From Escherichia coli (GTDB taxonomy: Bacteria; Pseudomonadota; Gammaproteobacteria; Enterobacterales; Enterobacteriaceae), in assembly GCF_003334335.1 (NCBI RefSeq), contig NZ_QOWQ01000012.1: a stretch of DNA of 64,000 nt. One strand, given 5' to 3'. Position 1 is the stretch's first letter, and each line of letters opens with the position of its first letter. Below, one piece after another: positions 56,768 to 58,548 of this stretch. The position numbers were made by a program, and so were the translations under genes. A model generated the notes under the pieces. That model ran no database searches, had not been told where the DNA came from, and saw only the letters and a list, made by a program, of their open reading frames with translations.

Positions 56768-57175
56768 ATGAACATCAGCGATGTAGCAAAAATTACCGGC
56801 CTGACCAGCAAAGCCATTCGCTTCTATGAAGAGAAGGGGCTGGTGACGCCGCCGATGCGCAGCGAAAACGGTTATCGCACCTACACGCAGCAGCATCTCA
56901 ACGAACTGACCTTACTGCGCCAGGCACGGCAGGTGGGCTTTAACCTGGAAGAGAGCGGCGAGCTGGTGAATCTGTTTAACGACCCGCAGCGGCACAGCGC
57001 CGACGTCAAACGGCGCACGCTGGAGAAGGTGGCGGAGATCGAACGACACATTGAGGAGCTGCAATCCATGCGCGACCAGCTGCTGGCACTGGCGAATGCC
57101 TGCCCTGGCGATGACAGCGCCGACTGCCCGATTATCGAAAATCTCTCCGGCTGCTGTCATCATCGGGCAGGGTGA
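56768..57175 (+). CDS. cueR: MerR-family copper-responsive regulator CueR
   Basis: 135-aa [42 protein letters not shown] with C-terminal metal-binding cysteines ([10 protein letters not shown]). Confidence 0.96.
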
Positions 57176-57634
57176 TTAAGACGAGACGGCTCGGATATGT
57201 AGGGTTATCCCTTCTATCGCAATGACTTCAACATGCGTACCTGCACCGAGATCCTCGCTGGCGCTGACAGGCCATGAACTGTCACCGACGCGCATATGAC
57301 CGCGCCCGTTGACCAGCGGAGATTCCAGCACAAAACGTCGGCCAATCAGCTGCTGCCCGCGCTGGTTTAAATGACTATCGCTGTGCTTTTGTTCGCGCAC
57401 CCGCCGCGACAACCATTTCCACCACAGCCAGGCGGCGAGCAGCGTCAGGATGGCAAACATTACCCCTTGCCACTCCCAACCCAGCGGCACCAGCCAGACC
57501 ACCAGGCCGGTAATCACCGCTGCCACGCCGCTCCACAACAAATAACCATTTCCGCCCAGCATCTCGGCTGCCAGCAGCAAACCGCCGAGACTGAGCCAGA
57601 AAATATGTGGATGAACGACCATTAACTCCATCAT
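57176..57634 (-). CDS. ybbJ: NfeD-like membrane protein YbbJ
   Basis: 152-aa ORF with N-terminal TM helices and C-terminal OB-fold-like region; its ATG overlaps the qmcA stop (ATGA). Confidence 0.9.
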
Positions 57635-58548
57635 GGCTGAGTCCGTTTGTTGGCGCTGTCTTTCACCAGCTCGGCAATCCCGGCAATCGACCCCATCAGG
57701 CTGCTGGCCTCTAATGGCATCATCACTACTTTGCTGTTACTGGAGGAACCGATCTGCTGTAACGCTTCGGTGTATTTCTGCGCTACGAAGTAGTTCACCG
57801 CCTGAATATCACCGGAGGCGATAGCTTCAGACACCATTTTGGTGGCGCGGGCTTCTGCTTCGGCGGAACGTTCACGCGCTTCAGCCTGTAAAAACGCCGA
57901 CTGACGTTCGCCTTCCGCTTTCAGGATTTGCGACTGTTTTTCACCTTCGGCTTTGAGGATTTCCGCCTGACGGATCCCTTCCGCTTCAAGAATGTAAGCG
58001 CGTTTGGTACGTTCCGCTTTCATCTGCGCGTTCATTGAAGAGATAAGCTCTGCCGGTGGGCGCACGTCGCGAATTTCAATACGGGTGACTTTAATCCCCC
58101 ACGGGTTGGTGGCTTCATCGACAATACGCAGCAGGCGTGAGTTGATGCTGTCGCGCTGAGAGAGCATTTCGTCAAGTTCCATTGAACCCAGCACGGTACG
58201 GATGTTAGTCATGGTCAGGTTGATGATCGCCAGCTCCAGATTGCTGACTTCATAAGCCGCGCGCGGCGCGTCAATCACCTGAATAAAGCACACGGCGTCG
58301 ATGGTAACGTTGGCGTTATCTTTCGAGATAACTTCCTGGGAAGGGATATCGAGCACTTGCTCCATCATATTGATCTTGCGACCAATGCGATCCATAAACG
58401 GCACCACCAGACTGAGCCCCGGCTGTAACGTTTTGGTATAGCGACCAAAGCGTTCTACTGTCCACTGATAGCCCTGCGGTACGATTTTGACACCCGCGCC
58501 GACAATGACCAGCGCGACAAAAATGAGAATCGGGATAAAGATAAGCAT
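57631..58548 (-). CDS. qmcA: SPFH (stomatin/prohibitin)-family membrane protein QmcA (YbbK)
   Basis: 305-aa [48 protein letters not shown] (stomatin-like band-7 domain). Confidence 0.93.

Follow-up and report, generated by a model that had tools for sequence, protein, structure and literature searches.

The locus that we analysed lies in a 64-kb stretch of E. coli DNA (the window), which is 100% identical to MG1655, and corresponds to cueR / ybbJ–qmcA of E. coli K-12. Adding 457225 to a window position gives the position in NC_000913.3, and the coordinates of all features are collected in Table 1. The plus-strand gene encodes the copper regulator CueR, which scores above the cut-off of two NCBIfam equivalog models, PRK10227 and TIGR02044. 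It converges on a minus-strand pair, qmcA and ybbJ, that a sequence-only reading of this DNA had taken for an SPFH-family protein and its NfeD-like partner. Both identities hold: QmcA contains the Pfam domain Band_7 (PF01145, residues 21-191, E = 1.9e-39) and YbbJ the NfeD domain (PF01957, residues 94-148, E = 5.1e-12). In YbbJ this C-terminal (OB-fold) domain lies behind transmembrane segments, as is characteristic of the family; no NCBIfam model matched the protein. Moreover, QmcA is identical to chain A ('Protein QmcA') of PDB entry 8z5g, and YbbJ is identical over its 152 aa to chain B ('Inner membrane protein YbbJ'). This entry is the cryo-EM structure of the QmcA-YbbJ complex, which contains 26 QmcA and 26 YbbJ chains (Tan et al., 2024).

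Table 1. Coordinates of the features discussed in the text (window positions; MG1655 positions in brackets where a published data set supplied them)
Feature	Position	Strand	Basis
cueR transcription start, monocistronic operon b0487	56728 (MG1655 513953)	+	SMRT-Cappable-seq Supplementary Data 2, PMC6131387
cueR CDS, Cu(I)-responsive MerR-family regulator	56768..57175	+	ORF list, NCBIfam, RefSeq annotation
Weak terminator-like hairpin and U5, candidate qmcA-ybbJ transcript end	56783..56811	-, antisense in cueR 5' part	Consensus scan
K-12-specific diverged patch (~160 nt), centred on the junction	57049..57205		Pairwise comparison with L001, L002, L004
Long imperfect hairpin in cueR 3' coding end, stops 2 nt short of the stop codon	57099..57171		Fold z-scores, inverted repeats
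Stop-to-stop junction TGA/TTA, zero spacer	57173..57178		Sequence; also insertion/deletion breakpoint in other E. coli
ybbJ CDS, NfeD-family inner membrane protein, 152 aa	57176..57634	-	ORF list, Pfam, PDB
C-rich, G-poor tract, candidate Rho-loading (rut) region	57400..57600	+ (antisense to ybbJ)	GC skew
Alternative second ybbJ ATG (TGATG)	57631-57629	-	Sequence
ATGA overlap, qmcA TGA and ybbJ ATG	57631..57634	-	Sequence, junction classes in relatives, weak ybbJ Shine-Dalgarno
qmcA CDS, SPFH / stomatin-like protein, 305 aa	57631..58548	-	Pfam, PDB
Rho termination region, antisense to qmcA	57763 (MG1655 514988)	+	Adams et al. 2021 supplementary file 2, PMC7815308
qmcA-ybbJ bicistronic transcription start, operon b0489/b0488	58600 (MG1655 515825)	-	SMRT-Cappable-seq, PMC6131387

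Two gene junctions at the locus

The sequence and the list of open reading frames bear out the claim that the two convergent stop codons are directly adjacent. The cueR TGA (57173-57175, plus strand) is followed, with 0 nt between, by the ybbJ TAA (57176-57178, minus strand), which appears as tta on the plus strand. Mis-called stop positions, which would have undermined this claim, are not the cause, as RefSeq annotates the genes of MG1655 with identical boundaries (cueR 513993..514400, ybbJ 514401..514859, qmcA 514856..515773).

At the other end of ybbJ, the ATGA overlap between the qmcA stop and the ybbJ start is found in the sequence as it had been described. The minus strand reads ATGATG from 57634 to 57629, and the qmcA TGA (57633-57631) has a 4-nt overlap with the first ybbJ ATG (ATGA) and a 1-nt overlap with the second (TGATG). 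Since the closest relatives carry ATGATT or ATGATC at this place, the first ATG is the conserved start. A mis-called ybbJ start was considered and rejected: the relatives back the first ATG, and the YbbJ chain in the PDB also has 152 aa.

Both junction features are real yet common, and neither is unusual compared with chance or with the background of the window. The 11 annotated convergent pairs in the window have spacers of 51, 48, 30, 41, 211, -4, 132, 36, 315, 0 and 62 nt, of which two are zero or less, namely those of hemH/aes (-4 nt) and cueR/ybbJ (0 nt). Furthermore, six same-strand pairs in the window overlap, by 1-14 nt.

Transcription across the convergent junction

Full-length reads define both a cueR transcript and a bicistronic qmcA-ybbJ transcript (PMC6131387). 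An RpoD holoenzyme site has in addition been reported within the qmcA<>ybbL spacer, with the operon given as 'qmcA-ybbJ' (PMC3946193). Because the spacer between cueR and ybbJ is zero, any 3' untranslated region must overlap the opposite gene. ExcludonFinder lists cueR-ybbJ as one of 165 convergent pairs whose transcripts overlap in 50% or more of 58 RNA-seq samples from MG1655 (PMC12288877). Judged by transcript overlap, the pair is a convergent excludon on three counts: the zero spacer, the published list and a Rho-sensitive region on the plus strand.

The sequence-only reading had further claimed that the junction leaves no space for terminators and that each transcript must end inside the other gene. 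The first part stands for the surroundings of the junction, where a consensus scan found nothing terminator-like within ~350 nt on either strand. A bidirectional intrinsic terminator, that is a GC-rich hairpin with an A tract and a U tract, is likewise absent from the junction. Mapping of 3' ends had been named as the check on this claim. The Term-seq tables of Adams et al. list no 3' end at 5138xx-5146xx and assign none to cueR, ybbJ or ybaT (PMC7815308), and the SMRT-Cappable-seq TSS/TTS table gives no defined transcript end for the start site of either unit (PMC6131387).

The second part has to be modified for the cueR strand. Published DirectRNA-seq with and without bicyclomycin, the values of which we took from the supplement as given, reveals a Rho termination region at MG1655 position 514988 on the plus strand (Rho score 15.4, p = 2.7e-12; Adams et al., 2021, PMC7815308). 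The reads upstream and downstream of this position number 61 and 5 in untreated cells, and 68 and 86 in the presence of bicyclomycin (PMC7815308). The region is found 588 nt downstream of the cueR stop, past all of ybbJ and in the 3' part of qmcA, although the scoring windows of 800 nt place it only to within a few hundred nucleotides (PMC7815308). Thus, the cueR-strand transcript ends within the opposing operon, as claimed, but not strictly in ybbJ, since the Rho region lies beyond that gene.

On the plus strand, the GC skew of the candidate rut tract amounts to -0.32 to -0.46 in 100-nt windows, and the RNA is untranslated here because the tract is downstream of the cueR stop. The two hallmarks of a Rho-dependent terminator, more read-through when Rho is inhibited and a C-rich untranslated stretch upstream, are therefore both present, and the skew suggests that the Rho-loading site may lie within this tract. 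Besides cueR transcripts, the Rho signal on the plus strand could include read-through from ybaT.

Since the junction offers neither a spacer nor an intrinsic terminator, RNA polymerase leaving cueR would proceed antisense across ybbJ. The untranslated cueR-strand RNA would then bare its C-rich tract, and Rho would be expected to halt transcription ~0.6 kb on, near the ybbJ start and the qmcA end.

The qmcA-ybbJ transcript would likewise proceed antisense into cueR. It is probably ended either by Rho or at the weak hairpin-plus-U site in the 5' part of cueR, which has a predicted fold of -16.4 kcal/mol and a z-score of -1.44. A comparable site is found at the same place in one relative locus, L014. 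For the qmcA-ybbJ transcript it is the logic of the arrangement that points to an end inside cueR.

Translation of ybbJ

The arrangement of qmcA and ybbJ is that of an SPFH-NfeD operon: the genes are adjacent, on the same strand, conserved and co-transcribed. In all 80 related loci, the next gene after the qmcA homologue belongs to the NfeD family. In E. coli the two genes are co-transcribed from a promoter in the qmcA-fetA spacer. The best duplex between Shine-Dalgarno and anti-Shine-Dalgarno sequences is calculated at -3.2 kcal/mol for ybbJ, compared with -11.0 kcal/mol for qmcA and -10.3 kcal/mol for cueR. The weak ybbJ site could still allow independent initiation.

A stop/start overlap on one mRNA, together with a downstream gene that has no strong ribosome-binding site, is what characterizes coupled gene pairs, and both are found here. 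Ribosomes that finish at the qmcA UGA would most likely restart at the overlapping ybbJ AUG. Such a restart would tie the synthesis of YbbJ to that of QmcA, and it fits the equal chain numbers (26 each) in the solved complex. Termination-reinitiation coupling of qmcA and ybbJ, with which the weak ribosome-binding site of ybbJ is consistent, is therefore the most likely reading.

Alternatively, ribosomes might initiate de novo at the first or the second ATG of ybbJ, whose translation would then not depend on qmcA, and the ATGA would be a by-product of compaction. This would fit the GGA motif 6-9 nt upstream of the ybbJ start and the variation of the exact overlap: in Enterobacterales the qmcA stop and the ybbJ start are offset by -4, -1 or +2 nt, and offsets of 3-137 nt occur in Pasteurellaceae and Vibrionaceae. 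However, the three Enterobacterales offsets account for 52 of the 53 loci, and in these the stop and the start are never more than 5 nt apart. In combination with the poor Shine-Dalgarno duplex and the equal chain numbers of the assembly, this makes independent translation unlikely.

Variation of the junction in relatives and within E. coli

Coupling concerns only one of the two junctions. For the other one, it is conceivable that selection has favoured the tail-to-tail overlap as a regulatory device, making it a functional excludon in which transcription of cueR and of qmcA-ybbJ repress each other. Polymerase collision or cleavage of double-stranded RNA by RNase III would then link the copper sensor to the SPFH/NfeD cage. 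Membership in the published core excludon list (PMC12288877) and the higher synteny of excludon pairs in general are in line with this idea. So is the conservation of the pair: cueR and ybbJ are convergent neighbours in 51 of 53 Enterobacterales loci, and they overlap or are at most 3 nt apart in 28 of 51 species. Even in two Vibrio loci a MerR-family gene, whose product is 47% identical to CueR, is convergent to an NfeD gene.

However, no single configuration has been kept. The tight junctions range from -47 to +3 nt, a further 16 of the 51 species have spacers of 33-122 nt, and seven species carry inserts of 1.2-2.9 kb. The one spacer examined, the 84-nt spacer of L014, contains strong, terminator-like hairpins, one of which is followed by a U run. 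The gene that abuts cueR is a different one in Citrobacter, E. albertii and O157-like E. coli. Moreover, the junction is polymorphic within E. coli. A 120-nt junction probe finds a full-length match in 3205 of 5426 genomes (59%), and the remaining matches stop at probe position 60 or 65. About 41% of the complete E. coli genomes carry additional genes and REP elements, 0.8-2.6 kb in length, exactly between the two stops, which argues against a strict requirement for the overlap. Finally, few reads were counted on the cueR strand (PMC7815308). Taken together, we regard a selected regulatory overlap as quite improbable.

A more elaborate version would see in the contact of cueR with ybbJ-qmcA a conserved antisense circuit, in which the two transcription units damp each other and copper sensing is thereby coupled to the QmcA-YbbJ membrane cage. 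The circuit would have been lost or rewired in the lineages with inserts, and the junction would serve as a preferred recombination point for cassette swaps at the stops; this is very doubtful. By the comparison of genomes, the tight junction of cueR and ybbJ is an old one in Enterobacterales; it is nevertheless dispensable, because 41% of the E. coli genomes carry cassettes exactly there.

The K-12 junction itself is embedded in the diverged patch. Here, eight substitutions are clustered in the 3' end of cueR, and the final 30 nt of ybbJ contain another 13-14 differences. Among 82 loci there was no donor for the patch or for the K-12 ybbJ tail, the closest sequences being those of other E. 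coli (91%). A simple deletion that fused ybbJ to the 3' end of a 409-aa gene was considered as the origin of the K-12 junction. It was rejected because the K-12 tail does not match the 3' end of that gene and still encodes a YbbJ-like tail. Neither the 409-aa E. albertii ORF nor the small ORFs in the O157-type cassette had an informative match in Pfam or NCBIfam.

A hairpin at the 3' end of cueR

The long imperfect hairpin next to the junction could in principle be an embedded bidirectional terminator or a 3'-end stabiliser, with which both transcripts would end near the junction and overlap minimally. It contains inverted repeats of 12 nt and 9 nt, on both strands it folds more stably than shuffled sequence does (z-score -2.35 on the plus strand and -2.10 on the minus strand), and its inner stem recurs across several Enterobacteriaceae. 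This recurrence is explained by the stem arms, which encode the conserved GDDSA and GCCH motifs. Synonymous changes in orthologues disrupt stem pairs, and compensatory changes were not seen among them; Photorhabdus and Xenorhabdus fold a different local hairpin. Neither a U tract nor an A tract flanks the hairpin on either strand, the Term-seq tables contain no 3' end at it (Adams et al., PMC7815308), and the Rho-sensitive drop in coverage occurs ~0.6 kb beyond it. Rfam gave no match with E <= 1 between 56400 and 58800.

A terminator or stabiliser at this place is thus highly improbable. A functional RNA element was rejected as well, since the recurrence of the stem tracks conserved amino acids, no compensatory changes were seen and other genera fold different local hairpins. 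As neither strand has a U tract, the hairpin is probably incidental to the codons that specify GDDSA...GCCH.

Discussion

We interpret the whole locus as ordinary compact gene packing at K-12 cueR / ybbJ-qmcA, to which we assign a probability of roughly 80%. It is a textbook-style case of two common packing solutions and matters little beyond bookkeeping. The first is the 4-nt stop/start overlap, which probably equalises the synthesis of the two subunits of a cage of 26 + 26 chains. The second is a convergent junction that lacks a terminator and would depend on Rho to end antisense read-through. This interpretation is largely known already, and published data cover most of it. What is new is minor and of modest value: the spread of the tight junction in Enterobacterales, its polymorphism in E. 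coli and the diverged patch of K-12. The natural E. coli strains with and without inserts provide a ready-made test of whether excludon overlaps have a regulatory effect.

Little or no spacer and overlapping transcripts are what cueR-ybbJ shares with the convergent excludons of MG1655, among which it is itself listed, a call that rests on RNA-seq coverage thresholds (PMC12288877). A further example of a convergent excludon in the same window is hemH/aes, with its 4-nt overlap at 41789-41792. The region on the cueR strand also resembles the E. coli sites at which Rho terminates untranslated read-through and antisense RNA (Adams et al., 2021, and earlier work with bicyclomycin), being likewise sensitive to bicyclomycin and classed as 'antisense'. 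As in that class, more than 50 nt separate it from the stop codon that precedes it, and a C-rich, G-poor stretch lies upstream of it.

In the trpE-trpD and trpB-trpA pairs of E. coli, termination-reinitiation coupling at an overlapping stop and start (ATGA or TGATG) has been demonstrated genetically. The qmcA-ybbJ pair is like these in that both genes lie on one strand and in one transcript, with an overlap of stop and start and a weak Shine-Dalgarno site for the downstream gene, and in that their products assemble into a complex. The difference is that coupling in the trp pairs has its genetic demonstration, whereas in qmcA-ybbJ we infer it.

Finally, the literature on SPFH1a-NfeD1a operons explicitly names YbbK/YbbJ as an example (Hinderhofer et al., 2009). 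As in P. horikoshii, where the stomatin PH1511 is paired with the NfeD protease PH1510, a Band_7/SPFH gene is joined to a gene for an NfeD membrane protein. YbbJ represents the short form of NfeD and lacks a ClpP-like protease domain; in it, Pfam recognizes only the NfeD C-terminal domain. Several other SPFH-NfeD operons, such as yqiJ-yqiK and yuaF-floT, put the NfeD gene first. Unlike in these, it is the SPFH gene that comes first in qmcA-ybbJ.

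Gene boundaries and products

The region around cueR, ybbJ and qmcA matches E. coli K-12 MG1655 with 100% identity, and adding 457225 to a window position gives the position in NC_000913.3. The sequence-only reading had claimed that the stop codons of cueR and ybbJ are in direct contact, and that the qmcA stop and the ybbJ start overlap as ATGA. Both claims hold exactly: sequence and ORF list leave 0 nt between the two stops, and the RefSeq boundaries of all three genes are the same. Both CueR equivalog models recognise CueR with scores above their curated cut-offs. QmcA contains a Band_7/SPFH domain (E = 1.9e-39) and residues 94-148 of YbbJ form an NfeD C-terminal domain (E = 5e-12), as expected for the proposed SPFH protein and its NfeD-like partner. 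Both are identical to chains of PDB 8z5g, which holds 26 chains of each and is, as cited in PMC12478178, the structure of the QmcA-YbbJ complex that Tan et al. 2024 solved by cryo-EM. The pairing of YbbJ with YbbK (the old name of QmcA) was already described in 2009 as a conserved SPFH1-NfeD1 operon (PMC2636767).

Features of the cueR/ybbJ/qmcA region and related sites in the window
Feature	Window position	Strand	NC_000913.3 position	Remark
hemH/aes overlap	41789-41792		499014-499017	4 nt, convergent
Secretion adaptor remnant	56683-56771			ybaT-cueR 'spacer' of K-12
cueR transcription start	56728	+	513953	
Adaptor/cueR overlap	56768-56771			ATGA
cueR CDS	56768..57175	+		stop TGA 57173-57175; sequence and ORF list
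Weak hairpin with U5	56811-56793	-		in 5' part of cueR
K-12-specific diverged patch	57049-57205			about 160 nt
Eight clustered sites	57049-57169			
Imperfect hairpin	57099-57171			
Sigma-70-like promoter match	57131-57160	-		ATGACA-18 nt-GATAAT
Insertion/deletion breakpoint	57173-57178			
ybbJ CDS	57176..57634	-		stop TAA ('tta' on + strand) 57176-57178; sequence and ORF list
C-rich, G-poor stretch	57400-57600	+		GC skew -0.32 to -0.46
qmcA stop/ybbJ start	57634..57629	-		ATGATG
qmcA CDS	57631..58548	-		sequence and ORF list
Rho termination region	57763	+	514988	
qmcA-ybbJ transcription start	58600	-	515825	

The qmcA-ybbJ overlap

At this junction the qmcA TGA overlaps a first ATG of ybbJ by 4 nt and a second one by 1 nt. 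Since E. albertii, Citrobacter and Enterobacter carry ATGATT or ATGATC at the same site, it is the first ATG that is conserved as the start codon. The YbbJ chain deposited in the PDB has 152 aa. Full-length SMRT-Cappable-seq reads (PMC6131387) define the operon b0489|b0488, a label equal to that of the RegulonDB operon, and one RpoD holoenzyme site has been mapped to the qmcA<>ybbL spacer (PMC3946193). The Shine-Dalgarno site is strong for qmcA (-11.0 kcal/mol) and reaches only -3.2 kcal/mol for ybbJ. An NfeD gene directly follows the qmcA homologue in 80/80 related loci, taken as one genome per species. Stop/start offsets in the 53 Enterobacterales loci are -4 (n=25), -1 (n=16), +2 (n=11) and +19 nt (n=1), and the spacers in Pasteurellaceae and Vibrionaceae range from 3 to about 140 nt. 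Taken together, the tight junction, the weak ribosome-binding site, the single mRNA and the equal-chain complex make coupling by termination-reinitiation the best reading, as a candidate mechanism.

Transcript ends at the cueR/ybbJ junction

The claim that the junction has no room for a terminator is supported by the 0-nt spacer and by a consensus scan, which found no terminator-like site within about 350 nt. The nearest site on the ybbJ strand is the weak hairpin with U5, and the nearest on the cueR strand lies within qmcA. An Rfam search of the region gave no match. A long imperfect hairpin (z about -2.3) extends to 2 nt short of the cueR stop, and the conserved GDDSA and GCCH motifs are encoded in its arms. 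It was rejected as a terminator, as it has no U tract and in orthologues the stem either carries changes without compensation or gives way to a different hairpin. The 3' end of cueR also contains a 10/12 match to a sigma-70 promoter directed antisense into cueR, which is a consensus match only. Such matches in the region as a whole do not exceed those in shuffled sequence.

Published data place the end of the cueR-strand transcript further downstream. cueR is monocistronic, with its own start site (SMRT-Cappable-seq), and Adams et al. 2021 (PMC7815308) list a plus-strand Rho termination region of the class 'antisense qmcA', 588 nt past the cueR stop and 129 nt past the ybbJ start codon. Reads upstream/downstream were 61/5 in untreated cells and 68/86 with bicyclomycin (Rho score 15.4, p = 2.7e-12). 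The C-rich stretch between the cueR stop and this region looks like a Rho-loading site. The proposal that each transcript ends inside the other gene stands with one refinement: the cueR strand does end in the opposing operon, though past ybbJ and in qmcA, via Rho, and the qmcA-ybbJ transcript would end inside cueR. The tables of Adams et al. 2021 contain no discrete Term-seq 3' ends for the locus, and the SMRT-Cappable-seq table has no defined transcript end for cueR or qmcA-ybbJ. This is in line with diffuse Rho-dependent ends; low expression may be an alternative cause.

Tight junctions in the window

By the MG1655 annotation, the spacers of the 11 convergent pairs in the 64-kb window are 51, 48, 30, 41, 211, -4 (hemH/aes), 132, 36, 315, 0 (cueR/ybbJ) and 62 nt. 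Six same-strand pairs overlap: mdlA/mdlB (8 nt), ybaB/recR (1 nt), qmcA/ybbJ (4 nt), fetA/fetB (14 nt), ybbO/tesA (11 nt) and ybbA/ybbP (4 nt). The cueR/ybbJ/qmcA junctions are not unusual against this background. hemH/aes is a second convergent junction without a terminator, and is also on the published excludon list.

Junction polymorphism within E. coli

A 120-nt probe across the cueR/ybbJ junction matched at full length, that is, abutted, in 3205/5426 complete E. coli genomes (59%). In the remaining genomes the match stops either at position 60, where the cueR stop codon ends, or at 65. Most of these carry one of two inserts. One is a 2.6-kb cassette (n=1349) that encodes a YadA-family adhesin and a lipoprotein and also contains small ORFs and REP elements; the other is a 409-aa gene or its frameshifted remnant with a REP element (n=966). 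E. albertii has an intact copy of the 409-aa gene, for which neither Pfam nor NCBIfam gave a match. The junction is an insertion/deletion breakpoint, with inserts at 9362-11995 and 2077-2905 in the E. coli loci L001 and L002 and at 3089-4414 in the E. albertii locus. A further variant is seen in the species-representative E. coli locus (L003 6486-6530), where the cueR frame leaves that of K-12 after ...CCHH for a 13-codon replacement tail and a REP element lies in a 112-nt spacer.

In both insert-type alleles ybbJ ends in ...ITLIIRAVIA-TGA, of which GCC-TGA is, in our reading, the start of the REP element; the K-12 end is ...[13 protein letters not shown]. Over its final 30 nt, K-12 ybbJ differs at 13-14 positions from L001, L002 and E. 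albertii, and the K-12 tail has about 57-60% DNA identity to other E. coli and E. albertii. At the eight clustered sites K-12 differs from each of the other three. Together these differences outline a diverged patch centred on the junction, with flanks 97-100% identical to L001 and L002, which suggests a short imported recombination tract. We hold with moderate confidence that in Escherichia the state with an insert is the older one, since E. coli shares it with E. albertii, and, equally, that the K-12 abutment came via such a tract from a diverged donor without insert. No donor was found among 82 relative loci.

Comparison across Enterobacterales

cueR is convergent to ybbJ in 51/53 Enterobacterales loci. 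Counting stop codons as gene, the spacer is -47 to -4 nt in 23 loci (mode -4; overlapping stops such as TTAA, CTAG, TTAG and CTAA), 0 to 3 nt in 5, 33-122 nt in 16 and 1.2-2.9 kb in 7. The one spacer examined (L014, a relative; 84 nt) contains strong hairpins, one followed by a U run. YbbJ past EGITL.I[KR]A and CueR past CCH vary in length and sequence; therefore, the two genes meet in unconstrained tails. Other neighbours occur as well: in E. albertii the intact 409-aa ORF with 0 nt between stops, in an O157-like E. coli a 67-aa ORF 3 nt away, and in Citrobacter sp. FP75 a 238-aa ORF that shares 4 nt with the 3' end of cueR, so that there, too, cueR has a convergent junction lacking a terminator, only with another partner. 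The Citrobacter locus (L007 8507-9684) has two extra ORFs, of 714 and 238 aa, between ybbJ and cueR.

At the other end of cueR, the K-12 'spacer' to ybaT is the frameshifted 3' remnant of an HlyD-family type I secretion adaptor gene, with seven A in a run that has eight in the intact gene. An O157-like strain has the intact gene, as part of a siiEA/T1SS island. The adaptor TGA overlaps the cueR ATG and the cueR Shine-Dalgarno site lies within the adaptor gene; the overlap means that cueR is tightly packed at both ends in island-bearing strains.

Assessment

The observation made from the sequence was right and its interpretation essentially so. ExcludonFinder (PMC12288877) lists cueR-ybbJ among 165 convergent pairs with transcripts that overlap in 50% or more of 58 MG1655 RNA-seq samples. 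A functional excludon is an improbable, minority reading, because the wide natural variation of the junction speaks for tolerance; this variation argues that the overlap is tolerated, not required. Gene boundaries, operon, excludon listing, Rho region and complex structure were already annotated or published, and the junction polymorphism within E. coli and the Enterobacterales-wide spacer comparison are new here.
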